NCBI GenBank assembly: GCA_945860865.1
Contig: CAMARW010000001.1
Span: forward strand, 136,154-200,153
DNA: 64,000 bases
Direction: 5' to 3'
Origin: Chitinophaga pinensis
Lineage (GTDB): Bacteria > Bacteroidota > Bacteroidia > UKL13-3
In this document: positions 3,050-46,474 of the stretch, piece after piece
Numbering within the stretch: position 1 is the first letter of the stretch
Layout: each line of letters opens with the position of its first letter
The notes under the pieces: generated by a model
Databases searched by the model: none
Told to the model about the DNA's origin: nothing
What the model saw: the letters and a program-made list of their open reading frames with translations, nothing else
Made by a program: the position numbers and the translations under genes

Positions 3050-3050
3050 T

Positions 3051-4772: not shown

Positions 4773-4776
4773 AACT

Positions 4777-11061: not shown

Positions 11062-11065
11062 ATTT

Positions 11066-12774: not shown

Positions 12775-13509
12775 ATGATGAATTTTTTACTAAACATTGT
12801 GGCAATTCCGGTAGATGATCCAATTGCTTTCACCTTCTTTACTGGCTACATGGCTATGCTTGCAGCTTCAGTATTTTTCTTCTTTGAGCGTTCAAGCGTT
12901 TCTAAAAAGTGGAAATTATCTTTGTTAATTTCTGGTTTAATCACAGGTATCGCAGCAGTACATTACTACTACATGCGTGATTATTATTTGGCTACTGGCC
13001 AAAATCCTACCGCATTGCGTTACATCGACTGGACATTAACTGTTCCTTTGATGTGTGTTGAGTTTTATTTATTAACTAAAGCTGCTGGAGCTAAAATTTC
13101 ATTGTTATGGAAATTATTAGCTGCTTCTGTTTGGATGTTAGTTGCTGGATACATCGGAGAAGCATTTACAGATGGTTCTTCTAGTCATTCAGTAATCTGG
13201 GGCTTCTTATCAACAATCGGTTATGTATATATTTTATACACTGCTTGGTTTGGTGAAGTTGCTCAGTTAGCTGAGAAAAGTGGTAACGAAACAGTTGTTA
13301 AAGGTGTTCGTATTTTAGCTTGGTTTGTATTAGTAGGTTGGGCTATCTACCCTATTGGTTACATGTGTATGCCAGGTGGTTGGTTAAACACAGGTTTAGG
13401 TTGGAGCAGTTCTAACGTAGATTTGTTTTACAACATTGCTGATGCTATCAACAAAATTGGATTCGGTTTAGTAGTTTACAGCGTAGCTGTTGCTAACTCA
13501 AACGACTAA
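12775..13509 (+). CDS. Proteorhodopsin-type light-driven proton pump (microbial rhodopsin, DTE motif)
   Basis: 244 aa with 7 hydrophobic segments. RYIDWTLTVPLMCVE aligns to proteorhodopsin RYIDWLLTVPLLICE. That alignment gives D85/T89/E96 (the DTE motif), Met93 at the L/Q105 tuning position, and His63 (H75 equivalent). NIADAINKIGFGL supplies D223 and the Schiff-base Lys227. Confidence 0.93.
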   Translation: MMNFLLNIVAIPVDDPIAFTFFTGYMAMLAASVFFFFERSSVSKKWKLSLLISGLITGIAAVHYYYMRDYYLATGQNPTALRYIDWTLTVPLMCVEFYLLTKAAGAKISLLWKLLAASVWMLVAGYIGEAFTDGSSSHSVIWGFLSTIGYVYILYTAWFGEVAQLAEKSGNETVVKGVRILAWFVLVGWAIYPIGYMCMPGGWLNTGLGWSSSNVDLFYNIADAINKIGFGLVVYSVAVANSND

Positions 13510-26323: not shown

Positions 26324-28474
26324 TTATATAAATTGTATTACTTTCAACCCATACTTAAAAATTAAATAGCTTATTATGCTAATGGTAAGTAATATAAACA
26401 AAGCTAGTTTCCATGGTTTCACCCTTTTTTTGCTAAAGGGGTCGTTTAGGTTTAATTCTGCATCAATGGGCATGCTGGCTATTTGAGTAAGTAGGTTTCC
26501 AAATTTAATATTTACTGTAGCGCGTGCATTAATTGCCCATCCATTGGCATCTAGAAGTGGAGCTAAATTACGCTTCCTTAGTTTAAGATAAGCTATAAGC
26601 ATAGAGGGGCCAGATATAAGTAATATGATACCCAAAATAGCCAAAGGTATTTTCCACCAAATAAGGGCCATAAATCCACCAATAAGCGATGCTAATGCAC
26701 CTCCTAAGGCTCCAAGGGCTAAACTTATAGCAGCAAAAATTCCTACAAATTTGCCAATATCAAAAGGTGTTGCTGGCGCAGTGGGTTTTTCTGCACTTTC
26801 TTTTGCATTTTCTGTGGCTTTGATAATTTTATTGTTGGCTTCAAGCTGCTCCTTATTATCTTGTGCTATTGCAAAATTATTAACTTGTGTACTTATAAAG
26901 TTTGATATCTTTCTGTAAGGCGTAAAAAAGGCTTGTCTTATACTAATAGGGTTGTCTATAATTTTTATGATGGTAGCATCCCAATCTTGCCCACTTCTAT
27001 CGTAAAACAAAGCGTTTCTTCCTACAATTAAATTATCTATATCGCCATTGGTAAGGGCGGCTACAATAATCATTTCTTCAGAAGTTGATTTAGAGACACA
27101 TTTACAATAAATCAAAAACATACCACTAAAACTTACCAAAGCATTATGCCTATCCATATCGTTTACCTTTAAACATAAATCACAACTTCTTTGGTCTATA
27201 AAAAGGGTGCCCGATTGAAAAATTGCTTTTTTGCCAGGTAAGTAAAAATCATTAAAGCTTACAAAATTCCTTAGTAGTGTAAATAAGTCTCTGTTATAAT
27301 GAGCTAATTTATTAACAAGCATAATACTTTCTGCCTCTTTGTTTAGGGCAGAGTCTTCAATCATTAGTTGGGCTAATTCTGCCCTATAATTACTGTGCAG
27401 AATTTCCTTTATTCTAAACATGCCTAATGTGGCCACTTCATTTCCTGTTTCTTTATTGCGCCATTGCTCATAGCCAGTAAAGGTAACTTTGAGCGCATGC
27501 CAAGCAGTTTCTGTAAGGGTTTCTTGGTTCGAACCAAATAGGATTTGCGAAAATTGCTTCAGTTCATTTTGCCAAATGGGATTAATGCCCACCTTTAAGT
27601 TAAGTGCCTTGCCTGCTTCAATTTTAGCTAATGGATAATTGCGCATTTCATCCATTTTAAAGTTTAAATCTTCATTCGCAATGTCTGCCACACGGGCATT
27701 TAATTGGTTAAGTATGTTAGTTGTTTCTGGGTCAAATGCAGCTAAATTACACCTTAAAAAGAAATCATCTATTTTAGATTTTACAGCTAAATAAGCTTGG
27801 TGCGCATTTGGTGTATCTATGCCAAATGGCATTATTTCGGAGGCCTTTTCTTGTGCTTCTATTTGCCATGAATAATAGTTTTCACAGGCCTCAAAAAAAG
27901 TTTGAAGCAGTTCCAAATCTATTCCATATTTACCGCCTCTATCTTGTTTTGAACCCACAGTTAAGCAGATTTCTTCGATTAATTGCTGTAGCTCATTGCG
28001 GCGCGTGCTGTCTGTAGTGATAATGCCATCTCCATTAAAAGATGTGCCAGCAAAAATCTTCACAATATCTAGGGTGTCTTCAATGGCAATGTAATCTTGA
28101 TCCCTTTTTCCAAGGTTATTTAAAATTGTTTTGGCACTTGCGTAAATCTCTTTGCCTTCAATTGTTTCTGTATTAATGGCGTCTAAATAAAGGTAACTAG
28201 ACCCAGCTAATAAATCATCTGGGTTTTTCAACAGGTTTAATACCCATTTTACAGCCGCTAAAATTTCGGGAACCCTAATTTTTTGGTCATTATTGGTATC
28301 AATTAATTGCAGGGTTTGTGGATCAATTTCTAATCCATTTACTGGGCAGCTTAGGGCTGTCCACAGTTTTTGATCTAATGTTTCTAAGGCCAATAAATCT
28401 GCACCCGAATCTAAATTAACGCGCTTAACTCCGCCAATGGTGGCGAATCGCCAAATATGATTGTTGGTTTCCAT
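26324..28474 (-). CDS. Large conserved-looking hypothetical protein: soluble N-terminal ~560 aa with EF-hand-like loops, and C-terminal multi-TM anchor
   Basis: 716 aa. DTNNDQKIRVPE fits a DxNxDxxIxxxE calcium loop, and there is a second NGDGIITTD loop. The C-terminal part has Gly/Ala-rich TM segments (FVGIFAAISLALGALGGALASLIGGFMALIWWKIPLAILGIILLISGP) and a final TM. Confidence 0.6.
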   Translation of the reverse strand: METNNHIWRFATIGGVKRVNLDSGADLLALETLDQKLWTALSCPVNGLEIDPQTLQLIDTNNDQKIRVPEILAAVKWVLNLLKNPDDLLAGSSYLYLDAINTETIEGKEIYASAKTILNNLGKRDQDYIAIEDTLDIVKIFAGTSFNGDGIITTDSTRRNELQQLIEEICLTVGSKQDRGGKYGIDLELLQTFFEACENYYSWQIEAQEKASEIMPFGIDTPNAHQAYLAVKSKIDDFFLRCNLAAFDPETTNILNQLNARVADIANEDLNFKMDEMRNYPLAKIEAGKALNLKVGINPIWQNELKQFSQILFGSNQETLTETAWHALKVTFTGYEQWRNKETGNEVATLGMFRIKEILHSNYRAELAQLMIEDSALNKEAESIMLVNKLAHYNRDLFTLLRNFVSFNDFYLPGKKAIFQSGTLFIDQRSCDLCLKVNDMDRHNALVSFSGMFLIYCKCVSKSTSEEMIIVAALTNGDIDNLIVGRNALFYDRSGQDWDATIIKIIDNPISIRQAFFTPYRKISNFISTQVNNFAIAQDNKEQLEANNKIIKATENAKESAEKPTAPATPFDIGKFVGIFAAISLALGALGGALASLIGGFMALIWWKIPLAILGIILLISGPSMLIAYLKLRKRNLAPLLDANGWAINARATVNIKFGNLLTQIASMPIDAELNLNDPFSKKRVKPWKLALFILLTISIISYLIFKYGLKVIQFI

Positions 28475-28889: not shown

Positions 28890-30467
28890 ATGGCAACTTC
28901 AAATTCCCTTTTTGCGGAAGCATTAAAAGTGCTAAAAAGTATTCAAGATAATGCTGTTGTTGGGATTCATACTACTGATATTCCCAAAGACATTTATCGT
29001 AAAATATTGCTTAAAGAGGGCTTTTTGCGTGAGGTTACTAAAGGTTGGTATATTGCTTGCAATCCAGCCGAAAAGTATGGCGAAACCAGCTCTTGGTATA
29101 GCTCTTATTGGGATTTTATAGGGCAATATTTAAATCATAAGTATGGAGATAATTGGTGTGTATCCGCCGATCAGTCGGTTTTGTTACACGCAGGTAATTG
29201 GTCTGTACCCCAACAACTATTTGTTCGGTCGCCGCTTGGAAACAATAATCCTACGCCGCTCCCCAATCGAATATCTTTGTTTAATTTGAAAACTGCTTTG
29301 CCTCCAACTTATCAAATGTTGGTGATTAGGGGAATAAGGGTATATAAGTTACAGTCCTCGCTCATATATAGCACTCCATCATTGTATGCTCACAATCCCA
29401 TAGATGCGCGCACTGCTTTATCTTTAATAAGGGATGCTTCTGAGGTTTTGCCTATATTGTTGGAGAATGGTCATACCACCATTGCAGGTCGTTTAGCAGG
29501 GGCTTTCCGAAATATTAAGCGAGAATCTATTGCCAATCAAATTTTGGATACCTTTAAGCAAGCGTATTATGAAATGAGAGAAGATGATCCGTTTGCAACT
29601 AAGTTAGCCATTGATTTTAATTCGAGAGAGCGTTCTCCTTATGCCACACGTATTAGGCTCATGTGGATGGAAATGAGGGAGGTGGTGATAGCACATTTCC
29701 CTCCTGCACCTGGTTTACCTGCAAGTAAAGACGATTTTATTCAGTCGATTGAAGATATTTATATTACCGATGCCTACCATTCTTTATCTATCGAAAAGTA
29801 CAAAGTTACTCCTCAATTAATTGAAAAAGTAAGTTCTGGAAAATGGGATGCCAAGGAGAATGAGCAAGATAAACAGCAAAAAGATGCCATGGCTGCAAGA
29901 GGATATTATCAGTGTTTTCAGTCGGTTAAAGGATCTATACATGCCATTTTAGAGGATGCTAATGCGGGTGCGCAAGTAAATAAGGATCATGCAAAATGGT
30001 ACAGAGAATTGTTCGACCCAAGCGTAGCCTCGGGCTTATTAAAAGCTTCGGATTTGTCGGGTTACAGAAACCACCAAGTATATATAGGAAACTCTAAACA
30101 TGTACCCCTTCCTGTAGATGCCATGCGCGATGCCATGCCAGTGCTTTTTGAGTTATTAGAACAAGAGCCGGAGGCTTCTGTGCGTGCCGTATTAGGGCAT
30201 TTTATTTTTGTTTTTATTCATCCATATATGGATGGCAACGGGAGAATTGGAAGATTTCTAATGAATGCTATGTTGGCTTCTGGTGGGTATACCTGGACGG
30301 TTATTCCGGTAGAATCGAGGAATGAATATATGTACACTTTAGAAAAAGCAAGTGCCGAACAAAACATTGTGCCTTTTGTTAAATTTCTGGCCTATTTGGT
30401 TACAGAGAGTTTGTCTGGTAACGTGGTGGCAGAACTTCCAGCTTATTATAGTCGAATGAATGATTAA
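28890..30467 (+). CDS. Fic-family protein (AMPylase-type fold) with a long N-terminal extension
   Basis: 525 aa. The Fic core HPYMDGNGRIGR matches HxFx(D/E)GNGRxxR with F replaced by Y. Confidence 0.85.
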   Translation: MATSNSLFAEALKVLKSIQDNAVVGIHTTDIPKDIYRKILLKEGFLREVTKGWYIACNPAEKYGETSSWYSSYWDFIGQYLNHKYGDNWCVSADQSVLLHAGNWSVPQQLFVRSPLGNNNPTPLPNRISLFNLKTALPPTYQMLVIRGIRVYKLQSSLIYSTPSLYAHNPIDARTALSLIRDASEVLPILLENGHTTIAGRLAGAFRNIKRESIANQILDTFKQAYYEMREDDPFATKLAIDFNSRERSPYATRIRLMWMEMREVVIAHFPPAPGLPASKDDFIQSIEDIYITDAYHSLSIEKYKVTPQLIEKVSSGKWDAKENEQDKQQKDAMAARGYYQCFQSVKGSIHAILEDANAGAQVNKDHAKWYRELFDPSVASGLLKASDLSGYRNHQVYIGNSKHVPLPVDAMRDAMPVLFELLEQEPEASVRAVLGHFIFVFIHPYMDGNGRIGRFLMNAMLASGGYTWTVIPVESRNEYMYTLEKASAEQNIVPFVKFLAYLVTESLSGNVVAELPAYYSRMND

Positions 30468-34433: not shown

Positions 34434-35783
34434 TTATTGCTTATTTACATTTAGCCATTTCGCAGTAGCAATAGCATCCATGGGTTTTGCTACTATTTTA
34501 TTTTCGGCATCCAATACAAAAATACTTGGGCTTGCAAAAACATAATAATTTTTAACATTGGGACTTCCCCAGCCTTTAAAATCGCAAGTGTTGATAAATG
34601 GCAAATCCTTTATATAGGCATCATACTTTTCTTTATCCGTATCTAGCGAAACAAAAATTATTTCGGCATCGTATATTGTTTTAAATAGTTGTGCATATTC
34701 TTTAAACTGGGGCATTTCCTTGGTGCATGCTTCGCACCAAGTGGCGCCAAACACCACTACTTTGTACTTCCCGGGCACTTCTGATAATTTTTTGTACTTC
34801 AGGCCTGCACTAAATACCATGTCGGCTGCTGTATTGCCAATAGCCATTTTCTTATACTGTTCCAGTAGGGGTAAGGTTTTATCGTTAATGATGCATTTGT
34901 TATCGCCTAATAACGACAAGGCCAAGTGTTCTGCACATCTAATGAGTCCAAATTTTTCGTATTCCTTCATTAGGTATTCGCAATAATGGTTGAGGGCTTT
35001 GGTATTGCCTTGACTACTTTTTTTAAGCACATCCGAAAAGGCATTTAGTTTGGATACAATTAGGGCTTCTTCTTGTAGGGTGAAGGTATGCTTAAGATAG
35101 GCATCAAACAACTCTTTGGCCAAGCCCGAATAGAATAAACTTTCGTCACTAAAATCAACTTTCAAGAGCGTATTTTCTCCATCCCTTGCTTCTATTTCGG
35201 TCTTGTTTACTTTTTGTAGCTTTTGCAAAACAGCCCGATACGTTAGGTACGCTTTGGCATAACTTGTATGGGGTATTTTTTTTAGATATACATCAAACCT
35301 GCTGTTTTCACTCGTAATCTCTTGTTCCAGTTGTGCAGTTAATTCTTTTTTGGTGGGATCCATTTTATAGAAAGGCAACAAGTAGGTAAGTCCTGCTAAT
35401 TTTTTCTGGGCATCCATATTGATTGTGTAGGCATCTTGAAATAATTCGTTTTCTTTAGATTTAGTGAACTGCACACCCGTAAAATCTTTGAAGTCGGCCC
35501 ATGTGATCTCAAAATTTTCATTATTCAACAATACAATCAAGCTGGTCATTTCTTTTACTTGAAGGTTAGCGGCACCTTTGTATCTTTTGGGATAATTTAA
35601 CTGAAAATTGCCCGAAGCATCGGTTTTGGTTTGAGCGAGCAAGGTGTCTTTAGTACCTATAAATCCCATCAGGCGGATTTCTGTTTCTTTAGCGGCACTA
35701 AAACAGCCTTTGAGTACCATACTGTTTTGAGCAGATGCCTGTAAAACAATAAAATAGAGTACAATAAAAATGCTTTTTTTCAT
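34434..35783 (-). CDS. TlpA/AhpC-like thiol-disulfide oxidoreductase with an N-terminal accessory domain
   Basis: 449 aa with a signal peptide. The C-terminal thioredoxin fold carries FGATWCEACTKEMP (a CxxC motif). Confidence 0.75.
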   Translation of the reverse strand: MKKSIFIVLYFIVLQASAQNSMVLKGCFSAAKETEIRLMGFIGTKDTLLAQTKTDASGNFQLNYPKRYKGAANLQVKEMTSLIVLLNNENFEITWADFKDFTGVQFTKSKENELFQDAYTINMDAQKKLAGLTYLLPFYKMDPTKKELTAQLEQEITSENSRFDVYLKKIPHTSYAKAYLTYRAVLQKLQKVNKTEIEARDGENTLLKVDFSDESLFYSGLAKELFDAYLKHTFTLQEEALIVSKLNAFSDVLKKSSQGNTKALNHYCEYLMKEYEKFGLIRCAEHLALSLLGDNKCIINDKTLPLLEQYKKMAIGNTAADMVFSAGLKYKKLSEVPGKYKVVVFGATWCEACTKEMPQFKEYAQLFKTIYDAEIIFVSLDTDKEKYDAYIKDLPFINTCDFKGWGSPNVKNYYVFASPSIFVLDAENKIVAKPMDAIATAKWLNVNKQ

Positions 35784-35845: not shown

Positions 35846-37093
35846 TTAGCTTTTGAATGCTCCGCTCATTATTTCTTGCTCAAATTTTGAAATTCCAATT
35901 TCATTAGCTAGAATTTTCCACTGCTTTACAGCTAGTTTTACTTCTTCAATACTATTATTCATGGCGGTATTATTTAATCTAAAATACTCCCCAACACTTT
36001 TAGCAAGTTCTATATCCAAATCATTATTGTCCATGTCTATATTTAAAGATAAACCGTTTTTATCTATAGATGGGTTGATGTCATAAGCAGGAGAAAGCAA
36101 CCATCCTTTATCACTAAGAATAAAACCATGGTTTCTTAAATGGTCATCTGTATTTGAAATTAAAATATTGAATACAATCCGTTTCCATAATTGGGCTAAA
36201 TCTTCTTTAACATTTGCGCCATATTGTTGAATTACTTCTGCTATGTCGAGATAACTTGCTGTTGTATTTCGGAGTATGTCTTCATTATTGCCAGTCATGG
36301 TCATAGCCGAGGCAAAATGAATGCGTTCACTTTTTATCCTGTCAAAGCGTTTGGTGAAAAAAGTATTATACTTCCCGGATACCTTACTTATTTTTGATTC
36401 AGACATGTTAATCCCCGCTTTTAATGCCAATTGATAGCTTACATATTCCCAAGCGGCTTTGTCTATGGTGTCGTTTTTTGAAGGGAATTTGGCAATCCAT
36501 AAGTGTTTATGCTCGTCTAGTATATTGGCTTTAGGCCTGGCGCCGCCTAATGATGAACCCGGTGCAATCAATTGTGCTAACCATTTTTGTACTTCATCAT
36601 TGTCTCGATCGCTTTCTATGCAGTCTACCGCATGTTGGAGCTGCCCCACTGATGACCATGGCGGTGTAGGACTATGTAATGAATTATCTAAAAAATAACC
36701 CTGGGGATCCAATTTAAATCTCAAAGCACCCATTCTACTTTCATCATAAACACCCAACAAAAAATCTATTTCGTATAAATTTGATGGCGATTTTCCTTGC
36801 TTTTTAGCTAGAGAATGTGCTCTTCTTTTTAGTAAAGTTCTCCCCCAAGTATCTGGCATACTATCCAAGAAAATACCGAAATTTTCTTTTGAATCAGGAA
36901 ATTGCGGTCCCGAATAATGTTGAATATCAGGATCTAGTAAAAAAGCTTGATTCGATGTTAACCAGTCTTTTTCATACTCAAAACTAAATGATTTTCTCCC
37001 TTTGCCTTGATGGGCTGATAAAACGCCTATAAGCTTAGCTTCAGTCATTCCTAACCAATGTGCATACACAAATATGTCGGTTTTATTAGCCAT
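35846..37093 (-). CDS. hipA: Type II toxin HipA-family serine/threonine kinase
   Basis: 415 aa with SLGGARPK, the catalytic region NTDDHLRNHGF and PAYDINP. These are the classic HipA N- and C-terminal domain motifs. Confidence 0.85.
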   Translation of the reverse strand: MANKTDIFVYAHWLGMTEAKLIGVLSAHQGKGRKSFSFEYEKDWLTSNQAFLLDPDIQHYSGPQFPDSKENFGIFLDSMPDTWGRTLLKRRAHSLAKKQGKSPSNLYEIDFLLGVYDESRMGALRFKLDPQGYFLDNSLHSPTPPWSSVGQLQHAVDCIESDRDNDEVQKWLAQLIAPGSSLGGARPKANILDEHKHLWIAKFPSKNDTIDKAAWEYVSYQLALKAGINMSESKISKVSGKYNTFFTKRFDRIKSERIHFASAMTMTGNNEDILRNTTASYLDIAEVIQQYGANVKEDLAQLWKRIVFNILISNTDDHLRNHGFILSDKGWLLSPAYDINPSIDKNGLSLNIDMDNNDLDIELAKSVGEYFRLNNTAMNNSIEEVKLAVKQWKILANEIGISKFEQEIMSGAFKS

Positions 37094-37104
37094 TGTTACA
37101 ACGA

Positions 37105-37392
37105 TTAAAGAAGTTTAATGTCTTGTAATTTGCGCCCAAGTTCGTCATCAGAAGCCAGTTTTAAAAAATCATTTTGAAGTCCTAGGGTTTTTAGCACATT
37201 AAAATAGGCTCCCATCGCTACTTTAGGACTTCCCTTTTCTATTTCATATAAGGTTGACCTGGCAATATCTGCTCTTTCCGCCACTTGAATAGTAGTTAAG
37301 TTCCTGCGTTTTCTTGCCAACTTCAGATTCTCGCCTAATGTTTCCAAAATAGAATGGTATTTAGGAGATAATATTTGTTTTTTGCTAGCCAT
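37105..37392 (-). CDS. hipB: XRE-family HTH antitoxin (HipB-like)
   Basis: The ORF runs to 37443, but the ATG at 37392 (MASKKQILS...) is the plausible start. The HTH is LKLARKRRNLTTIQVAERADIARSTLYEIEKG. Its stop lies 11 nt upstream of the hipA start. Confidence 0.75.
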   Translation of the reverse strand: MASKKQILSPKYHSILETLGENLKLARKRRNLTTIQVAERADIARSTLYEIEKGSPKVAMGAYFNVLKTLGLQNDFLKLASDDELGRKLQDIKLL

Positions 37393-37431
37393 TTGTTCGT
37401 TATTTTGTACAAATGTATTAATTCTGATTGT

Positions 37432-37573
37432 ATTAACGAACATTATTTGAATTAACTTTAAAGTATAAGGTGTTTGCTAAATCACTTTCTTTTACTTGTG
37501 TCTTGTTTTCTTTTTGTAAATTTTTCAAAACAGCCCGATACCTATAAAATACTTTGGTGCCATTCGATGAAAG
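37432..37573 (-). pseudogene. Relic of a TlpA-like paralog (internal fragment only)
   Basis: The reverse-strand translation is LSSNGTKVFYRYRAVLKNLQKENKTQVKESDLANTLYFKVNSNN. This parallels residues of the intact gene at 34434-35783 (YAKAYLTYRAVLQKLQKVNKTEIEARDGENTLLKVDFSD). At the DNA level, 37501-37562 aligns with 35201-35262, including the identical 19-mer CAAAACAGCCCGATAC. Confidence 0.55.
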
Positions 37574-38389
37574 TTAGTTTGTGGTCCTACTAAAGCTACA
37601 ATTAGGGCTTGTATTTAAAGTAAATGAATTAGTACCTGCTGCGGTTGGTGTTCCGGTAGCGGTAAGCACAATGTTTTGTGCACCGGTAGCACTAAAAGTG
37701 CCTGAACCATTAAAGGTTACCCCATTAGCTGTGGTAGTAGAAATACTGTACGTTCCCACTGTGGTAACCGTAGCCGTAATGGTTTGGGTTACTCCTGAGA
37801 CGGCAATACCTTTAGTCATAGTACCTGCCGAAGCGGTGGAACAAGTATATGCTGAAACGACTGCGGTACCATTAGAAGAAGTACTAAATATATATCGGAT
37901 GATGACGATGCCGGCACCAGCTGCAGGAGCTGCACTTCCACTTTCATCGCGCATACCGCCCGAACCGCCCTCACGATTGGCTGGTGCGTTTGAAGTGCCC
38001 CCGTCAGACGCGGCAACGCCAGCATTATTGGCAATGCCAGTGCAGCCACCACCTCCACCGGCATATCCAATGGCTGTTCCTGTGATGCTTGAAATAACGC
38101 CGGAACCTCCGGCACCACCAACTAGCCCAACATTACTAGAACCAGCAGAACCGGCACCGCCACCTCCGGCACCTGGCCAATGCTGAGATCCGGTAACGCT
38201 GCCACCGTTGTTGCCTTGCGATGGTGTATTTGCTGGTGTATTACCTGCGCCTCCAGTACCTTGGCTGGTACTTACTAAGTCTAATGCCGTATTTGCATTG
38301 GGCGAGTTTGTACCTATTCCTACTTGCGCATAACTTTTAACAGTAGTTAATAAAAAGGCTAAAATAATTAGGAACAGGTATTTTTTCAT
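37574..38389 (-). CDS. Secreted glycine-rich paralog: shared signal peptide and start of the head module, Gly-rich core, and a shared Ig-like module
   Basis: 271 aa. The N-terminus MKKYLFLIILAFLLTTVKSYAQVGIGTNSPNAN is nearly identical to that of the next gene. The core is GAGGGGAGSAG...GGAGGSG...YAGGGGG...GGSGG...GIVIIRY. The C-terminal SNGTAVVSAYTCSTASAGTMT...LTATGTPTAAGTNSFTLNTSPNCS is shared with the two FISUMP genes. Confidence 0.6.
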   Translation of the reverse strand: MKKYLFLIILAFLLTTVKSYAQVGIGTNSPNANTALDLVSTSQGTGGAGNTPANTPSQGNNGGSVTGSQHWPGAGGGGAGSAGSSNVGLVGGAGGSGVISSITGTAIGYAGGGGGCTGIANNAGVAASDGGTSNAPANREGGSGGMRDESGSAAPAAGAGIVIIRYIFSTSSNGTAVVSAYTCSTASAGTMTKGIAVSGVTQTITATVTTVGTYSISTTTANGVTFNGSGTFSATGAQNIVLTATGTPTAAGTNSFTLNTSPNCSFSRTTN

Positions 38390-38437
38390 AAGCTTTAATC
38401 TATTGTAGGGGATTTGATAAATTTTATTCTTTAGATA

Positions 38438-40189
38438 TTAATCTTTAATGCAACGCACAGACCGCCCGTCTGCTCGGTTAAGGGTGTGCATTTGAACACT
38501 GCCGCTATTAAAGTACAAGTAGCTCGAATATGTGCTATTTGCCACCCCAAACGTACTGGCCCAATAGCCAGCGCCAGAATTAACAGCTGCGAATGAACCT
38601 GGCCCTCCTGAGCGAGCCCCTGGCAATGAGAATTTAAGCGGAGATGCCAAACCTGCTATTGAGGTGAAGCTGCTCCATGAAAGTGCTTGATTATACAGTT
38701 CTGTAATGGTAGGTAGACGATACCCAATTGGGCAAGGGTTGTTAGTTCCGGAAACCCCTTGCCATAAGTTGTCATCTTGTGGAGTGCGCCAGTCGTTAGG
38801 AGCTGTGGAATTTGTGATAAAGTTAGTTGAAGTCCATGGTGTTGCAATAGGGCCAGCTGTGTTTCCGCTAGTTCTAAATTCATGCCCATCAGCCCCTCTA
38901 CCCCATTGGAATAAAGAACCATAAGCGTTCGCATCGGTAGAACCGCTAGCTTGTGCCGCAGGGTTAAAAGCACCGTTGGTGGTATTTGCATAATTAGCCC
39001 CCAAGTTGTTGTTGAGCCATGTTCTGCCATCGGCTCCTAAAACAGGCATATAAAACATCACATGGTTGGCATCCGCAATATTGCGGTCTGGAATAGCTGC
39101 TATGTTTCTAAATTGAAAGTTTGCAGTACCGGTGGTGTTGTTAGTGGCATAAGTAAACTGTGCTAACAAGTAACCTAAATAATCGTTGCCAATACCTGTT
39201 TGTATGTCTAATTTTTTGGCATTCAAGGTGCCACCAACTGCTTGTAAAGTAACCATAATATTTCCACTACTCGCAGCCAACGAAGCTGCACCATAAGAAA
39301 AAGTAACATCTCTTGAAATACCATCCTCTGTAAAGGAAGCAGGTACATTGATGGTTTGGCTAAATGCGGGTAAACTTACCGTGCTAGATGACACTGTGTA
39401 AGGAATTTTTAACATTACTCCGGTAGTGGTTAAACTACCTTGAACATTAAGCGCACTACCTTCGTTTGTACCGTTAGCTGCTTGTGCCGTAGCTAAACTT
39501 GCCGATACCGTAGGAGCAGTATAAGGTAAGTAATCTTGGTCGAACACAGATGCTACAAAAAAAGGACTAATGGCAGATAGCGTTATGTTAGCAGGCAGTG
39601 GTGCTGGGTTCGTTATTCTACTATAGCTGCAATTTGGCGTAGTATTTAAAGTAAAGGAACTACTACCTACTGCAGTAGGCGTTCCGGTAGCGGTAAGTAA
39701 AATATCTTGAGCACCTGTAGCTGCAAAATTGCCTGAACCTGCAAATGTTACCCCATTGGCACTGATAGAAATGCTATAAGTTCCAGCGGTACTTACGGTA
39801 GCAGTAATGGTTTGTGTTACACCTGAAACAACAGAACCTGCAGTCATTGTACCAGCCGATGCGGTGTTACAAGTAAATGCAGAAACAATGGCTGTTCCAT
39901 TAGACGAGGGTGAAAGGCCTAAACATTTCCAATTCACTGTTGTGCTGCTACCTATATTGGTTTGGATGCAATTTAGGGTGGTATTAAAAATGCTTAAGCC
40001 CTTTGCTGGACTGCTTATAGCATCTCGCTGTGCCGTGGTCATGCGCGGCAATAACATTCCTTGGCTGTTGCTTAATACGTCTAGGGACGCATTGGCATTG
40101 GGGCTGTTGGTGCCTATACCTACTTGCGCATTACTCGTAATTGTAGTTAGTAGAAAGGCTAAAATAATTAGGAATAGGCATTTTTTCAT
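38438..40189 (-). CDS. Secreted FISUMP-domain (Fibrobacter succinogenes major paralogous domain) protein with an N-terminal GIGT head module and an Ig-like module
   Basis: 583 aa. The C-terminal domain carries WLNNNLGANY, YGSLFQWGRGADGH, NNPCPIGYRLPT, GYWAST and SVRCIKD. This is the canonical FISUMP pattern (YG.LYQWGR..DGH / CP.G..LP / YWS / VRC). Confidence 0.75.
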   Translation of the reverse strand: MKKCLFLIILAFLLTTITSNAQVGIGTNSPNANASLDVLSNSQGMLLPRMTTAQRDAISSPAKGLSIFNTTLNCIQTNIGSSTTVNWKCLGLSPSSNGTAIVSAFTCNTASAGTMTAGSVVSGVTQTITATVSTAGTYSISISANGVTFAGSGNFAATGAQDILLTATGTPTAVGSSSFTLNTTPNCSYSRITNPAPLPANITLSAISPFFVASVFDQDYLPYTAPTVSASLATAQAANGTNEGSALNVQGSLTTTGVMLKIPYTVSSSTVSLPAFSQTINVPASFTEDGISRDVTFSYGAASLAASSGNIMVTLQAVGGTLNAKKLDIQTGIGNDYLGYLLAQFTYATNNTTGTANFQFRNIAAIPDRNIADANHVMFYMPVLGADGRTWLNNNLGANYANTTNGAFNPAAQASGSTDANAYGSLFQWGRGADGHEFRTSGNTAGPIATPWTSTNFITNSTAPNDWRTPQDDNLWQGVSGTNNPCPIGYRLPTITELYNQALSWSSFTSIAGLASPLKFSLPGARSGGPGSFAAVNSGAGYWASTFGVANSTYSSYLYFNSGSVQMHTLNRADGRSVRCIKD

Positions 40190-40237
40190 AAGCTTTAATC
40201 TATTGTATGTAATTTGATAAATTTTATTTTTTTGAAA

Positions 40238-41974
40238 TCAATCCTTAAGGCAACGTACAGATAATCCGCTACCTCGGTAAAAGTCGCCCACGGAGGCATC
40301 ACTGCTACTTAAGTTCAAGCCGCGCGAAAGGGTACTGCTAATCATATTGCTCCAATAGAAGCCGATGGTACCGATATTGTTAATCGAACCATCTACGCGG
40401 TAACGGCTGCCCGGCAGGGGTAATCTGAGGGGAGAGGCAATTGCACCTGCTGCGGTGTTGGCAGACCATGAAAGTCTTTGATTATTTAATTCTGTTTCGG
40501 TAGGTAAACGATACCCAATAGGGCAAGGATTGTTAGTTCCGGAAACCCCTTGCCACAAATTAACGTCTTGTGGCGTGCGCCAATCATATGGATTTGAGGA
40601 AGTTGTAATAAAATTAGTTGAAATCCATGGTGTTGAAATACGGCCAGCTGTTTCTCCACTGTTTCTAAATTCATGCCCATCAGCCCCTCTACCCCATTGA
40701 AATAAAGAACCATAAGCTTTCGCATCGGTAGAACTACTAGCTTGTGCCGCAGGGTTAAAAGCACCGTTGGTGGTATTAGCATAATTAGCTCCTAAGTTAT
40801 TGTTGAGCCATGTTTTACCGTCAAGTCCTGCAACAGGAACATAAAGCATTCTGTGATTGGCATCCGCTATATTGCGGTCTGGGATAGGTGCTATGTTTCT
40901 AAAGTCAAAGTTTGCAGTACCGCCACTATTGTTGGAAGCATAGGTAAACTGTGCCAACAAGAAACCTAAATTATCGCTACCAATCCCTGTTTGTAGGTCT
41001 AATTTCTTAGCATTTAAGGTGCCACTAATAGCTTTTAAATTAGCGTTAATCGTTCCTTTACCCACAACCAACGTAGCTCCAATGTATGAAAAAGTTACAT
41101 CTCTTGCAATACCATCTTCTGTAAAGGAAGCAGGAATATTTATTGTTTGACTAAATGCTGGTAAACTTACCGAAGCCGTTACCACTGTATAAGGAATTTT
41201 TATTGTTACCCCAGTTGTGGTTAAAATCCCTTGAATATTAAGCGTAAAAGTTTCGTTTGTGCCGTTAGCTGCTTGTGCCGTAGCTAAACTTGCCTCTCCT
41301 GTTGGAGCAGTATAAGGTAAGTAATCTTGGTCGAACACAGATGCTACAAAATAAGGGCTAATGGCTGATAGCGTAATGTTAGCAGGCAGTGGTGCTAAAG
41401 TTGTTCTTAAAAAGCTACAATTAGGCGTAGTATTTAAAGTAAAGGTGTTACTACCCGCAGCAGTTGGGGTTCCGGTAGCGGTTAGTACAATGTTTTGTCC
41501 ACTACCTACAGTTAAAGATCCCGAACCTGAAAAAGTTACCCCGTTGGCCGTAGTAGAAATAATGTACGTTCCTGCAGTAGTTACGTTAGCAGTTATGGTT
41601 TGTGTTACACCTGATACGGCAACTCCAGCAGTCATATTACCTGCCGAAGCGGTAGAACAAGTATATGCTGAAACTATCCCGGTACCATTGGTAGAAGGTT
41701 GGGCTGCAAAACATTTCCAATTGGGTGAACCGGCTGTGCCTAAATTGGTTTGTATACAATTTAGGGTGGTATTAAAAATGCTTAAGCCTTTGGCAGGACT
41801 AGCAATTACATCTCGCTCTGCAGTGGTCATACGAGGAAATAACATACCTTGGCTGTTGCTTACTGCGTCTAGGGCCGCATTGGCATTGGGGCTGTTGGTG
41901 CCTATACCTACTTGCGCCATGCTTGCTAGCGAGCAAAATATTGCTACAAGGGTTAGTGTAAAATTATTAATCAT
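40238..41974 (-). CDS. Secreted FISUMP-domain protein, tandem paralog of 38438-40189
   Basis: The ORF runs to 42016. The ATG at 41974 gives signal peptide MINNFTLTLVAIFCSLASMAQ. The architecture matches its neighbour and long stretches are identical, for example APLPANITLSAISP.FVASVFDQDYLPYTAPT and WLNNNLGANYANTTNGAFNPAAQAS. It ends SVRCLKD. Confidence 0.75.
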   Translation of the reverse strand: MINNFTLTLVAIFCSLASMAQVGIGTNSPNANAALDAVSNSQGMLFPRMTTAERDVIASPAKGLSIFNTTLNCIQTNLGTAGSPNWKCFAAQPSTNGTGIVSAYTCSTASAGNMTAGVAVSGVTQTITANVTTAGTYIISTTANGVTFSGSGSLTVGSGQNIVLTATGTPTAAGSNTFTLNTTPNCSFLRTTLAPLPANITLSAISPYFVASVFDQDYLPYTAPTGEASLATAQAANGTNETFTLNIQGILTTTGVTIKIPYTVVTASVSLPAFSQTINIPASFTEDGIARDVTFSYIGATLVVGKGTINANLKAISGTLNAKKLDLQTGIGSDNLGFLLAQFTYASNNSGGTANFDFRNIAPIPDRNIADANHRMLYVPVAGLDGKTWLNNNLGANYANTTNGAFNPAAQASSSTDAKAYGSLFQWGRGADGHEFRNSGETAGRISTPWISTNFITTSSNPYDWRTPQDVNLWQGVSGTNNPCPIGYRLPTETELNNQRLSWSANTAAGAIASPLRLPLPGSRYRVDGSINNIGTIGFYWSNMISSTLSRGLNLSSSDASVGDFYRGSGLSVRCLKD

Positions 41975-41994
41975 AGTTTCTACTTTAAGCAGAA

Positions 41995-42516
41995 TCAATT
42001 TGTTAACGTAATCCAACTTGTACCATTATATAATTTCACTATATCAGTGGTGGTATTGTAATAGATCATACCTTCAACACCCGTTGGGTCACTGCTTGCC
42101 TGTGGTAACAAAACACCTTTTGTTGTTGAGCTTACATCCAAAACAGCATTGGCATTTGGCGTATTAGTGCCTATGCCTATTTTTCCTGTGGAGCTGGTAG
42201 CACCTGATGCCACAGCAGTGGTAGTTCCATTTACTATGTTTACCCATAAAGAACCACTGATGGCTACTTCTAAAACTTTGGTAGTGCTATTATAAATAAC
42301 TAAACCCGCACTTGGCGATTTAATAGTGGCATCGCGCTCTGCCGTGGTAAGCCTTGGTAACAATAAACCAACGGCTGAGCCGCTAGCTTTAATGTCTAAA
42401 GCTGCCGAAGCATCTGGCGTATTGGTTCCTATGCCTATTTGTGCATTTACATTGCTTAAAAGTAGGGCTATTAATCCTAGGGTTATTATTAAACCTTTAA
42501 CTATTGTGTTTTTCAT
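41995..42516 (-). CDS. Small secreted protein made of two copies of the shared GIGT head module
   Basis: 173 aa with a signal peptide. Copy 1 is AQIGIGTNTPDASAALDI...GLLLPRLTTAERDA...GLVIYNSTT. Copy 2 is KIGIGTNTPNANAVLDV...GVLLPQ...GMIYYNTTT. Confidence 0.6.
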   Translation of the reverse strand: MKNTIVKGLIITLGLIALLLSNVNAQIGIGTNTPDASAALDIKASGSAVGLLLPRLTTAERDATIKSPSAGLVIYNSTTKVLEVAISGSLWVNIVNGTTTAVASGATSSTGKIGIGTNTPNANAVLDVSSTTKGVLLPQASSDPTGVEGMIYYNTTTDIVKLYNGTSWITLTN

Positions 42517-42720
42517 CTATGCTTGTTTTTTTTCTTGGTTAGCCATGTTTTTGCTTTTTTTAATGCCATAAGCTAAGGCCGCACCTGCTAAAATGGAAAC
42601 AAAACCATCAACTGGGGTATCTTGAACATCATCATCAAAACCAGGTTGGGCATTTACTGCAACACTGGTAATTAGAGCAAGGCTAAAAGCTAAAGAAAGT
42701 CTTAAAATATATTTTTTCAT
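42517..42720 (-). CDS. Mini-protein consisting only of a signal peptide plus a C-terminal sorting-signal-like tail (PVDG motif, TM helix, basic cluster)
   Basis: The ORF runs to 42744, but the likely start is 42720 (MKKYILRLSLAFSLALITSVAVNAQ). The mature part is PGFDDDVQDTPVDGFVSILAGAALAYGIKKSKNMANQEKKQA. Its stop abuts the next gene's ATG with no gap. Confidence 0.5.
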   Translation of the reverse strand: MKKYILRLSLAFSLALITSVAVNAQPGFDDDVQDTPVDGFVSILAGAALAYGIKKSKNMANQEKKQA

Positions 42721-42744
42721 TTTTGTGATGATTACTCGTTTCAA

Positions 42745-44610
42745 TTATTTGATGAATTGGATGGTTTGTGATTGGTTGCCATTGGTAATTTTGAGGAAGT
42801 AAACCCCGTTGCTTATTTCTTGGGTATTTATGCTAGCCGGTTTGCCATTGGCCAACATTAAATCTCCTGAAAGTATGGTTTGACCTAATTGGTTTAACAC
42901 CGTGTAGGTATAGTTTCCTTCTTTTGAAGAGCTTAATGCAATATTTAAAATATCTGTAGTAGGATTAGGGTAAATAGAGCAGAAGCTTTCCTTGGCCATT
43001 TCATTTACCGCAGTTCCCATAGTAGTGGTTAAATAGAAGCGATCTGAACCAAAAGTATTTTGATTATTTGCATCAATCGTAAATGTGTATTTGAATTTAG
43101 CATCAACTTTAATGGTTTTGTTGGTAAATTGATCAACAAAGAATAAGTCTTTACCAGCAGGTAAATCAACGGTTGTGGCATTAATTTCTACCTCGGTAGA
43201 TCCACTTTTTATATTGGTAAATAATTTAATCTTTCCTTCATTCATAAAAGGGCGAAAATCTGTACACACATATTCACCATTGCTGGTTATAGCACTAAAA
43301 TTAAATGAGTCATTGCTCAATTTAATGGCATCGTACTTATTTTCAAAAAGAGAGCTAGCATTTTCGTCAAAACCAATATTTAAATTATCATAAACTACAC
43401 CTCCAATTTTAAATTCAAAAAGGGCAATATTGGTTAAGCCATTTTTAAAGGTAGTTAAACTAGAAGTTGTTGCTTTTCTTGCCTCAGTAAAAGGTAATGT
43501 TACATTTCCTGCTCCAATATTTCTTATAAATACAGCAGCATAAGATGGAATGCTATAAGGTGTGCCACTAGCTAACAATTGCGGTGTATATGACCCTGTC
43601 TGAGGATTACGTGTACAAACAGTTGGATTGATATCTAATACTCCAGTAGAAGCAAACACAACTGCACTAATGTCAACCGGAGAAGGGTAAGGATTTCCAA
43701 CAAGGTTAAATCCAGAATTATTTCCTGTGCCACCCGTTACCAAAGATAAATTTACATTTCCTGTGTTAACAGCACCTGTCATATCTAGTGTTAAGGCTGA
43801 AGGAATGTAAGAAACATTTGGTGACTCTAATCCTTGCCCTTTAGCACCTCTAATTAAAACACGGATACCTTGACCCACTTCCCAAGTATTGTTTAAACCA
43901 GAACCATCAGCAGCAGTAAATGCTTTCCAGCCGCCATTACTCGCATTGTCATTGGCGTCGGCAGTACTAAAACGAAATGCACTGGGATTATTTAATAACA
44001 CGGCTGTAAAGCCAGTACCAACTGTTTTAGAAGTATTATTATCAGTCACACCAGTTGTATTTCCAGTAATATCAATATTGTCTGTTATTATACTTAAGTT
44101 TTGGCCAGTAGAAAATGGATGGGCCATTAAACGGAATTTGCGTGCCCCAGGAATATATCTTTCTATTGTTACATTGCCAGAGATGGTTCCTGCAGAATTT
44201 GCAATTGATGCGGTTCCAGAGACATCAGATTTAAGCGTTAGGCTACCACTTGCAGCAATGGTTAAAGTACCATTCACGGTTAGTGCGTTGCTCATTCTTA
44301 TATTACCTCCACTTGGTATACTTGTGTTTGAACCAGCATTAATATTTAAATTTGTAAACGTACCTGTACCAGAAATGCTTTGCGTGGTGCCTGAAAAACG
44401 GACTGAACCGGCTCCAGTTATTCCATTGGTGTTTTGTATATCAAGGTTAGATTGTACACTTAAAATATCAGTGGCACTAGTAGTTAAAATAGAACCTGCG
44501 CCCAGATATAAATCTTGTGCAGATAATTGGGCGATAGAAAAAAACAGAAGCAGTAGAAACTTAGTTTTAAAATTTAGTTTCAAAATTTTTGATAAATAGG
44601 CTATTTTCAT
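42745..44610 (-). CDS. T9SS-secreted surface protein (beta-helix-like N-terminal region plus T9SS C-terminal sorting domain)
   Basis: 621 aa with a signal peptide. The N-terminal part is rich in G/S/T/N repeats (GAGSILTTSATDILSVQSNLDIQNTNGITGAGSVRFSG...). The CTD reads IYPNPTTDILNIAL...GVYFLKITNGNQSQTIQFIK. Confidence 0.7.
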   Translation of the reverse strand: MKIAYLSKILKLNFKTKFLLLLFFSIAQLSAQDLYLGAGSILTTSATDILSVQSNLDIQNTNGITGAGSVRFSGTTQSISGTGTFTNLNINAGSNTSIPSGGNIRMSNALTVNGTLTIAASGSLTLKSDVSGTASIANSAGTISGNVTIERYIPGARKFRLMAHPFSTGQNLSIITDNIDITGNTTGVTDNNTSKTVGTGFTAVLLNNPSAFRFSTADANDNASNGGWKAFTAADGSGLNNTWEVGQGIRVLIRGAKGQGLESPNVSYIPSALTLDMTGAVNTGNVNLSLVTGGTGNNSGFNLVGNPYPSPVDISAVVFASTGVLDINPTVCTRNPQTGSYTPQLLASGTPYSIPSYAAVFIRNIGAGNVTLPFTEARKATTSSLTTFKNGLTNIALFEFKIGGVVYDNLNIGFDENASSLFENKYDAIKLSNDSFNFSAITSNGEYVCTDFRPFMNEGKIKLFTNIKSGSTEVEINATTVDLPAGKDLFFVDQFTNKTIKVDAKFKYTFTIDANNQNTFGSDRFYLTTTMGTAVNEMAKESFCSIYPNPTTDILNIALSSSKEGNYTYTVLNQLGQTILSGDLMLANGKPASINTQEISNGVYFLKITNGNQSQTIQFIK

Positions 44611-45322: not shown

Positions 45323-46474
45323 ATGTTTGCCAATATAATTTTCTTTATTACCGCCTCCTTTGGATTTTTAGTTATTGCTAAACTCTTTGGAATAAACACA
45401 CAACAAGAGCACTCGCTCATTAATAAATACCTATTTATAATTATTGCCGCTAATGCGGTTAGGTTTTTATTTCATGGGATTTCCATCATTTTCCCTGAAA
45501 TCTATATTACTAAATTCACAAAAATTTTAGATATTGGTGCTGTTATGTTAATGCCTTGTTTCTATCTCTATTTTTATAATATAATTTATGAAGACAAGTT
45601 TGAACCAAAGAATTTGCTGCATTTTTTAGTGCCTTTTTTGTTGGGATGCATATTTATAATGGCATATTTTGTTGAATCTTTTAAAATAGATTTGGTTCAG
45701 AAATTATTTTTCTCTGTAAGCATTATACTCTATTTAATGTATGCTATTTTTATGTTTCTGTTATTGTACAAAAATGTTTGGAACCGTAAAGCCGAAATCA
45801 AAGTTGTTCAAAAACAAAATAATGTGATAAAAAATTGGACTATTTTTCTGTATGTATGTTTAGTAATGCTGCTTTTAATTGTTATTATAAAAAGTCTTAT
45901 TTTTAAAAATCCCACTTTTAGTGACAATTACCTTTGGATTTCTTCAATAGTATGGATGAGCTTATTTTTAAAATTAATTCTTTCCCCCGAAATACTTTAT
46001 GGTTATAATTTTTTAAATAAAACCATAAAAACAGAAGCTAAAGATTTGTTTCTCAATAATGTTTGGCTCATTGAGGGTAATGCAATTCCAATTATTATAG
46101 GGCGTGAAAAAATATTAGCCCCCAAGATTAAACTACAATTGATGGAATATCTTCATCAGATAGAAGAATTGTCTTTTCATAACCAAGCTTTTAGAAATCC
46201 GGATTATGGTCTTAACGATATGGCTTTAGCTTTGAATATTCCTGTGAGCCATATTAATTTTATTTTTAAATACCATTGTAGTGAGAGCTTTTCCGATTTT
46301 AAAAAGATTGTTCGCATCCACGATGCAAGCCAATTGTTAGAAAATGGGTACCTCAATAACCATAAAGTAGAAACGCTAGCTACTCATGTAGGTTTTGCGT
46401 CTTACAATACCTTCATTATAGCATTCAAAAGTATTACTGGAGTTACTACACAAGAGTATTTGAAACGAATTTGA
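45323..46474 (+). CDS. Membrane-anchored AraC-family transcriptional regulator
   Basis: 383 aa. The N-terminal ~215 aa hold about 6-7 hydrophobic helices. The C-terminal AraC HTH reads LNDMALALNIPVSHINFIFK...ETLATHVGFASYNTFIIAFKSITGVTTQEY. Confidence 0.8.
   Translation: MFANIIFFITASFGFLVIAKLFGINTQQEHSLINKYLFIIIAANAVRFLFHGISIIFPEIYITKFTKILDIGAVMLMPCFYLYFYNIIYEDKFEPKNLLHFLVPFLLGCIFIMAYFVESFKIDLVQKLFFSVSIILYLMYAIFMFLLLYKNVWNRKAEIKVVQKQNNVIKNWTIFLYVCLVMLLLIVIIKSLIFKNPTFSDNYLWISSIVWMSLFLKLILSPEILYGYNFLNKTIKTEAKDLFLNNVWLIEGNAIPIIIGREKILAPKIKLQLMEYLHQIEELSFHNQAFRNPDYGLNDMALALNIPVSHINFIFKYHCSESFSDFKKIVRIHDASQLLENGYLNNHKVETLATHVGFASYNTFIIAFKSITGVTTQEYLKRI

Follow-up and report, generated by a model that had tools for sequence, protein, structure and literature searches.

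The g1-g6 cassette and its gene products

The window analysed here is a stretch of 64,000 nucleotides (nt) from Chitinophaga pinensis (GTDB lineage Bacteria; Bacteroidota; Bacteroidia; UKL13-3), namely positions 136,154 to 200,153 of the forward strand of contig CAMARW010000001.1 in GenBank assembly GCA_945860865.1. All coordinates below are positions in this window. At 37574-44610, the listing of open reading frames (ORFs) contains six tightly spaced minus-strand ORFs, numbered here from g1 at the high-coordinate end to g6. All six were found where an earlier note, made from the DNA letters without database searches, had placed a six-gene set of secreted proteins. Four of the products (g3-g6) share a head module that has relatives in phage tail-fibre proteins, g4 and g5 end in domains related to the lectin-like FISUMP family and have a hypervariable tip, and g1 carries the C-terminal domain (CTD) of a type IX secretion system (T9SS) substrate. 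We propose that this cassette may make cell-encoded, phage-fibre-like adhesins, and the coordinates of its features are collected in Table 1.

With corrected starts, the genes are separated by 0-48 nt. The ATG at 42720 is the start of g2 in public gene calls, where the product is labelled PF28310 PID_CTERM. For g4, the ATG at 41974 is likely the true start; it is also the one used in public gene calls, and it removes the overlap with g3. A promoter and terminator scan of the locus performed at chance level and is therefore neither for nor against co-transcription. Signal peptides can be read from the sequences of g3, g4, g5 and g6. They are apparently of the Sec type with cleavage between A and Q, which would probably put the head module at the mature N-terminus of all four proteins.

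Table 1 Features of the cassette and associated genes (positions in the window; aa, amino acids).
Feature	Position	Strand	Product	Domains and remarks
g1	42745-44610	minus	621 aa, secreted	Predicted series of beta-sandwich domains with a T9SS type A CTD at the end (residues ~544-621)
g2	42517-42720 (ORF extends to 42744)	minus	67-aa mini-protein	PID-CTERM sorting domain
g3	41995-42516	minus	173 aa	Signal peptide and two PTL_trimer modules (nt 42229-42441 and 41998-42183)
g4	40238-41974 (ORF extends to 42016)	minus	578-aa putative fibre protein	Signal peptide, PTL_trimer head (nt 41732-41914), Cys-bounded beta module, conserved middle domain, FISUMP (nt 40241-40879)
g5	38438-40189	minus	583 aa, g4 paralogue	Head (nt 39944-40126), beta module (39608-39907), FISUMP/Lcl_C (38441-39094), hypervariable tip (38450-38689)
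g6	37574-38389	minus	271 aa	Partial head (nt 38258-38326), Gly-rich core (37880-38257), beta module (37577-37879)
HipB-like	37105-37443	minus		With HipA-like, toxin-antitoxin pair between g6 and the oxidoreductase gene
HipA-like	35846-37093	minus		See HipB-like
TlpA/ResA-like	34434-35783	minus	449 aa	Periplasmic thiol-disulfide oxidoreductase; conserved partner of the fibre genes
AraC-type regulator	45323-46474	plus	383 aa	Divergent; HTH_18 at residues 301-382
SprA homologue	56934-63680	minus	2248 aa	T9SS translocon; SprA_N E 1e-183; 12 kb from the cassette

The head module and its phage relatives

A hidden Markov model (HMM) of the head module was built from homologues of the g3 family and used to scan all ORFs of the window. 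The model matches g3 twice (residues 26-96, E 6e-32; residues 112-173, E 5e-29), the second copy being a shorter variant that lacks the TTAERD helix. A single full head is found in g4 (E 4e-20) and in g5 (E 5e-22), directly behind the signal peptide, and a partial match of ~23 residues is seen in g6 (residues 22-44, E 2.5e-6). No ORF of the window other than g3-g6 bears the module, and its repetition within the cassette is far beyond chance. The earlier note had counted five occurrences in four proteins. The four proteins and four full copies hold, including the two that make up g3, whereas the fifth copy, in g6, is a 23-residue stub.

The module had been taken as undescribed, but it already has a name and is widespread. 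Precomputed labels on homologues assign it to Pfam family PF26696 (PTL_trimer); the label is carried by the cluster entry identical to g3 (P0001), by a g5 homologue of 98% identity, and by all 120 g3 homologues listed. The g3 homologues number 276, with lengths of ~170 aa. A profile search of 1.84 billion representatives returned 46,762 clusters with the module at E <= 1e-3 and 12,416 at E <= 1e-10. The best 147 representatives contain 2-15 copies per protein, one every ~200-300 residues, and are up to 4,687 aa long. In 84 of these 147 the module begins no more than 40 residues from the N-terminus; a T9SS type A CTD is present in three, and YadA_head repeats in one. Among the larger proteins are giants of 2,000-4,700 aa (P0361-P0376) with about 6-15 PTL_trimer modules at regular intervals of ~200-300 residues. 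Some of these have a T9SS CTD (for example P0365), and some end in a stretch rich in charged residues that may be a coiled coil (for example P0361).

Phage proteins carry the module as well. In the isolated-phage collection, tblastn identified cyanophage tail and tail-fibre proteins as its nearest phage relatives. One example is a "tail fiber protein" of 202 aa from Synechococcus phage RN05-S, whose residues 130-191 match the module (HMM E 8e-15; 39% identity to g3). The module lies at the C-terminal end of this protein, which has no signal peptide, and the gene sits among tail-fibre, carbohydrate-binding and LamG-like genes. Seventeen PHROG families match g3; most have no annotated function and two are labelled virion structural proteins. 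The AlphaFold2 (AF2) monomer model of g3, with a predicted local distance difference test (pLDDT) score of 85, was compared with BFVD models and matches proteins of uncultured Caudovirales (67-77 residues aligned, 34-42% identity, root-mean-square deviation 2-3.6 A, probability 1.0).

The recurrence of the module inside long proteins, together with its presence in phage proteins that lack a signal peptide, indicates at the level of sequence that it is a structural unit of fibrous proteins and not an extended, cleaved leader. That it might be a mere cleaved leader had been set beforehand as a test of the proposal, and the internal repeats rule this out. It could instead act as an N-terminal export or targeting signal for some outer-membrane route without being a structural oligomerisation unit. 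The first copy does directly follow the signal peptide in the Bacteroidota loci read, beginning ~20-45 residues from the N-terminus with a nearly invariant AQ(V/I)GIGT (cleaved between A and Q), and g6 retains just 23 module residues, as if a stub were sufficient for something. However, multiple copies lie far from the N-terminus within single proteins, the RN05-S copy is C-terminal in a protein that has no signal peptide, and g3 is two module copies and nothing else, all of which make an export signal very unlikely. An oligomerisation-type structural unit, as the earlier note had suggested, agrees with the Pfam name, the tail-fibre homology and the internal repeats. By analogy with the general behaviour of phage fibres, the module would be expected to trimerise.

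Fibre-like proteins with variable C-terminal ends

The paralogues g4 and g5 are 71% identical overall. Identity is 70-92% along most of their length and falls to ~35% over the last 60 residues. Across 28 orthologues, column entropy is 1.6-2.0 bits at residues 501-580 compared with 0.5-0.9 bits mid-protein, and the tip is the most variable part of the mature protein. We treat the C-terminal domains of both proteins as divergent FISUMP members or relatives on the basis of their sequence matches: close homologues are labelled TIGR02145 or PF09603, and g5 also matches the related Lcl_C/DUF1566 family. Four parts had been described in the two proteins: head, Ig-like module, conserved middle domain and FISUMP domain. 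The head, the middle domain and a FISUMP-type end are indeed present, the last at scores under the curated cut-offs, but the second module has no Pfam or PDB match that would identify it as Ig-like.

FISUMP domains had also been said to have no established function. Their fold context is in fact known. In a large survey of diversity-generating retroelements (DGRs), the FISUMP motif group corresponds to the CLec2 class of C-type-lectin-like, ligand-binding variable proteins, which are DGR targets; their diversified extreme C-terminus is surface-exposed, and their conserved cysteines are thought to form extracellular disulfides (PMC5758913). Conserved cysteine pairs are present in the fibre-like proteins described here.

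The composition of g6 was confirmed as described earlier. Its signal peptide is that of g5. Behind it come the opening 23 residues of the head, a Gly-rich core and then a Cys-bounded module of ~100 residues, which shares 78% identity with the module that follows the head in g5. A PHROG profile, phrog_2295, matches the Gly-rich core (E 3.6e-12); no tblastn match to g6 was found in isolated phages, and this profile is the sole source of the phage likeness of the domain. Homologues of g5 join the head to fn3, Laminin_G_3, collagen, FGE-sulfatase-type and further domains, and in other loci the head is followed by a phage tail Collar domain or by LRR/DUF285. The occurrence of FISUMP, fn3, Collar, LRR/DUF285 and Gly-rich domains behind one and the same head shows that the C-terminal parts are interchangeable, which bears out the earlier proposal of exchangeable C-terminal "heads".

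Phage homologues of both the head module and the Gly-rich domain, a hypervariable tip in g4 and g5, and the use of FISUMP-type domains as DGR targets (PMC5758913) would all fit a prophage or tailocin fibre module in decay, or a receptor locus diversified by a DGR. We consider such an origin extremely improbable. No capsid, tail, baseplate, integrase or reverse-transcriptase (RT) Pfam domain was found in the window ORFs scanned, and PADLOC gave no match to a defence system. All four module proteins have signal peptides, and the neighbouring genes encode HipBA, the TlpA-like oxidoreductase and the AraC-type regulator, with SusC/SusD among the other chromosomal neighbours in the window. Moreover, the flanking regulator and oxidoreductase genes are syntenic in relatives of only ~60-70% identity. 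As regards a DGR, the ORFs scanned contain no RT domain (a template repeat was not searched for), so the variability of the tip looks like ordinary diversification or recombination and not like the work of a local DGR.

The T9SS substrate and the PID-CTERM mini-protein

The CTD of g1 (residues 546-616) matches Por_Secre_tail PF18962 with E 1e-13 and 51.8 bits against a cut-off of 27, which confirms the earlier identification of this 621-aa protein, and TIGR04183 with E 2.3e-12 and 46.7 bits against a cut-off of 23. Alone among the cassette proteins, g1 has what defines a T9SS type A cargo, namely a Sec signal peptide and the CTD, with SprA encoded in the window. Its AF2 model (pLDDT 79) is all-beta, with several sandwich domains followed by the CTD. 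Foldseek returned convincing PDB matches for the CTD only (mirolase CTD, T9SS-bound NucA CTD and DUF3244), and a match to an S-layer protein was discarded as unconvincing (TM score 0.11). No enzyme fold was recognised when the model was searched against the PDB, which is weakly consistent with a structural or surface role. Sequence searches of the PDB with g1, g3, g5, g6 and the g4/g5 family profile likewise gave nothing significant except the g1 CTD. The g1 family comprises 173 homologues without any other Pfam domain.

The g2 product matches PID-CTERM NF046080 at 32.4 bits against a cut-off of 26. Its signal peptide leads into a conserved acidic peptide (QPGFDDDVQDTPVDG), after which come a transmembrane helix and KKSK; the C-terminal part reads PVD-GFVSILAGAALAYGI-KKSK, as expected for a PID-CTERM member. 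The mature peptide of ~15 residues, QP.FDDDV.D.P(V/I)DG, is conserved between distant loci. Thus, the description of g2 as a "cargo-less" sorting mini-protein is correct as regards the sorting signal, but the conservation of the mature peptide speaks against its being cargo-less. The mini-protein accompanies g1 orthologues in the window, in L021/L035 and in L039-L042 (L numbers denote loci), and conserved g2 orthologues lie beside g1-family genes in L021/L035 and L032/L033.

The conserved operons of L032 (9001-18197) and L033 (9001-18158) encode, in this order, a g1-like protein (857-870 aa), a 230-aa CTD protein, a PID-CTERM protein (63 aa) and a 292-aa esterase-like protein with a weak match to PHB depolymerases. 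They continue with an SDF transporter, two uncharacterised proteins of ~430-450 aa and a lamin-tail-domain (LTD) protein.

Conservation of the cassette and its partner genes

Ten non-redundant loci with a g3-type gene were read, the window included. In all ten, the two-module gene is followed, at once or after one gene, by one to four long head-bearing genes, and the cassette recurs in Chitinophagales, Flavobacterium and other Bacteroidota. A gene for a T9SS-CTD protein adjoins the cassette in eight of the ten loci; in the window, L021/L035 and L022 this protein is orthologous to g1. In a third arrangement, a g1 homologue (P0257) follows two PTL proteins, one of which has a Collar domain. The recurrence of the arrangement across Bacteroidota supports the earlier view that these genes are linked in function.

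A strain-level variant of the cassette is seen in L039 (1769-3522), where two genes are added between g2 and g3, one for a further PTL-FISUMP protein of 288 aa and the other a second PID-CTERM gene, truncated at its 5' end. These inserted genes show cassette-style turnover.

The most constant accessory gene of the cassette is that for the TlpA-like oxidoreductase, which the proposed gene set had left out. The protein has Thioredoxin_8, AhpC-TSA, Redoxin and ResA/TlpA matches, and its homologues (~450 aa) are encoded beside PTL/FISUMP genes in 12 non-redundant loci, including those of Flavobacterium succinicans, F. branchiophilum and a Prolixibacteraceae genome. This tight synteny predicts a dedicated disulfide-handling step. 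Some of the 12 loci (L003, L006) have FISUMP proteins without a PTL head, and the enzyme may thus be a redox helper dedicated to FISUMP proteins at large.

A HipBA pair (HipA_C E 3e-52; HTH_19) separates g6 from the oxidoreductase gene. It occupies the same place in L036 (13291-14888) and is absent from L018, L035, L037 and L022, where the fibre genes adjoin the oxidoreductase gene. It is probably an insertion and lies outside the system. The divergent AraC-type protein has orthologues in the same position in L018/L019, L025 and L040/L041 and is a candidate regulator of the cassette; its N-terminal half is hydrophobic and probably membrane-spanning.

A model for the cassette

We consider it probable that g3-g6 are extracytoplasmic, phage-fibre-like binding proteins. 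For the whole scheme, in which the cassette makes cell-encoded, phage-fibre-like trimeric lectin adhesins, we see about an even chance. In such adhesins, the PTL_trimer module would nucleate the trimer and form the proximal end of the fibre, and the FISUMP C-type-lectin-like domain would form the distal end of g4 and g5. The hypervariable last ~80 residues of these two proteins would be the ligand-binding part, with a glycan on another cell or particle as the probable target, and the paralogues would have different specificities. A third fibre type would be provided by g6, with a Gly-rich domain that is also known in phage proteins. By analogy with small cyanophage tail-fibre proteins, g3 might serve as a base or connector and assemble together with the heads of the fibres. 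The T9SS would export g1, which may then be the surface attachment or export partner, and g2 may be an accessory membrane or sorting element. Within the periplasm, the TlpA-like oxidoreductase would manage the cysteine pairs of the fibre proteins.

The more specific roles of g1 as dock and g3 as adaptor, which the earlier note had proposed, are tentative, and we consider them less likely than not. A still more detailed version would have CTD-less lectin trimers assemble periplasmically on g3 and reach or stay on the surface only through the T9SS cargo partner, by co-export or docking, with the PID-CTERM peptide and the TlpA-like oxidoreductase as assembly factors. In this full form we regard it as rather unlikely. 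If true, it would represent a new accessory branch of type IX secretion that builds exchangeable adhesive fibres. Since the nearest relatives of the module in the isolated-phage collection are cyanophage fibres, such fibres might attach freshwater Bacteroidota to cyanobacteria or algae.

Several observations weigh against the adhesin scheme. Its weakest step is how fibres without a CTD or lipid anchor cross or stay on the outer membrane: g3-g6 have no T9SS CTD match and no lipobox and could be periplasmic. The earlier note had likewise reported neither signal in these proteins. The lack of a CTD match and of a canonical lipobox was confirmed, with the qualification that the g4 signal peptide bears a Cys (AIFC), which does not form a canonical lipobox, and g5 has none. 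The support for trimerisation is confined to the Pfam name and phage homology. The g3 monomer model has no PDB match with E below 1; the weak top Foldseek matches (CBA120 tailspike N-termini and Mtd) are in this range and were not relied on. FISUMP assignments fall under the curated cut-offs, both for TIGR02145 (g5, 31.3 bits, E 3e-7; g4, 24.4 bits, E 4e-5; cut-off 41.65) and for PF09603 Fib_succ_major (g4, 21.4 bits; g5, 13.4 bits; cut-off 33.9). The first module of g3 is hardly more similar to the neighbouring fibre heads within loci (46.7% identity) than between loci (43.0%), a comparison that gives no signal of co-variation. Finally, the CTD protein is missing from two of the ten loci (L037 and L038) and belongs to other families in further ones (329-336 aa in L024/L025/L036, 795 aa with a weak type C CTD signal only in L018, and at least 244 aa in L001, where the contig end cuts it), and the g1 family and its PID-CTERM partner also occur in operons without PTL genes (L032/L033). 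This last pairing suggests that the mini-protein is primarily a partner of the g1 family.

Several g4/g5 orthologues have a possible lipobox (...VSC, MAC or MSC, then SL...AQVGIGT), seven residues before the A-Q cleavage site. Some family members may therefore be lipoproteins.

The fibre-like proteins might alternatively be soluble, periplasmic or vesicle-released lectin-type proteins, with g1 and g2 merely co-regulated neighbours that have their own function. The absence of a recognised outer-membrane export or anchoring signal from g3-g6, the conserved g1/PID-CTERM pair in PTL-free operons and the two cassette versions that lack a CTD protein all agree with this. However, in the eight loci that have one, the CTD protein gene is directly beside the two-module gene despite the differing families, a further g1 homologue adjoins two PTL proteins in the third arrangement, and diversifying lectin tips are expected to face outward (PMC5758913). 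We regard soluble or periplasmic proteins as the less likely reading, though one deserving serious consideration, and prefer surface adhesins.

Other genes of the window

Elsewhere in the window, a glycan-degradation run on the plus strand (1130-12331) contains CBM30, GH3, GH16 with a T9SS CTD, and GH2-like domains; three ORFs at its start (1130-5811) are without a Pfam match. Behind it, at 13653-18935 on the plus strand, lies the gene for a T9SS cargo of 1760 aa, whose domains are choice-of-anchor I, 5'-nucleotidase C-terminal and SusE-like. A 244-aa microbial rhodopsin is encoded at 12775-13509 on the plus strand (Bac_rhodopsin E 2e-42). A 525-aa protein with a C-terminal Fic/DOC domain is encoded at 28890-30467, also on the plus strand, and adjoins a 716-aa ORF (26324-28474) without a Pfam match.

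Comparison with known systems

Taken singly, the domains (PTL_trimer, FISUMP, T9SS CTD and PID-CTERM) are each catalogued already, and the module belongs to a very large family. No account of the cassette, of what its parts do or of how its fibres would leave the cell came up in literature searches on PF26696, PTL_trimer, PID-CTERM and T9SS adhesins that resemble phage fibres. The worth of the locus lies in the recurring set of partner genes around the fibre genes and in an unexplained export route. It offers a handle on the ligands of FISUMP domains, on the purpose of PID-CTERM mini-proteins, and on a surface route for proteins that have neither a CTD nor a lipid anchor.

Phage tail fibres resemble the cassette proteins in having exchangeable C-terminal binding domains. 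The likeness is closest for T4-like cyanophage fibre proteins such as that of RN05-S, which share the homologous ~65-residue module (39% identical to g3), and cyanophage fibre clusters also encode small module-only proteins beside large ones with carbohydrate-binding heads. In contrast to phage fibres, every cassette protein has a Sec signal peptide, and the genes occupy a stable chromosomal locus without other virion genes, alongside a T9SS substrate, a PID-CTERM mini-protein and a TlpA-like oxidoreductase.

Two groups of bacterial proteins are similar in part. DGR variable proteins of the CLec2/DUF1566/Fib_succ_major type, such as Legionella LdtA, belong to the same motif class and vary at the extreme C-terminus (PMC5758913), but LdtA is a lipoprotein, whereas leaders of the signal peptidase I type and a fibre head characterise the cassette proteins. 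Adhesins of the trimeric autotransporter class (type Vc) are modular trimeric surface fibres, and one PTL-module protein also has YadA_head repeats. However, a C-terminal beta-barrel anchor is absent from g3-g6, and the conserved part of the cassette proteins is N-terminal; the locus does not encode a trimeric autotransporter.

The mosaic adhesive trimer (MAT) fibres of Bdellovibrio bacteriovorus are cell-encoded trimeric fibres related to phage fibres (PMC10769870). Their conserved N-terminal domain of ~130 aa is beta-rich, lies behind a signal peptide and has been proposed to bind a cell-surface element, the surface anchor being unidentified (PMC10769870). The cassette proteins resemble them in architecture, with a conserved domain right after the signal peptide and variable, swappable C-terminal tips (PMC10769870). 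No Peptidase_S74 domain was found in the window proteins, and MAT family members occur with or without an S74 chaperone. The two systems differ in that the cassette tips are FISUMP lectin-like and belong to another phylum, and the link with T9SS, PID-CTERM and TlpA-like proteins is specific to the cassette. Should our reading hold, tail-fibre modules of phages have been domesticated by Bacteroidota to give exchangeable lectin fibres of their own, a development parallel to the MAT fibres of Bdellovibrio.

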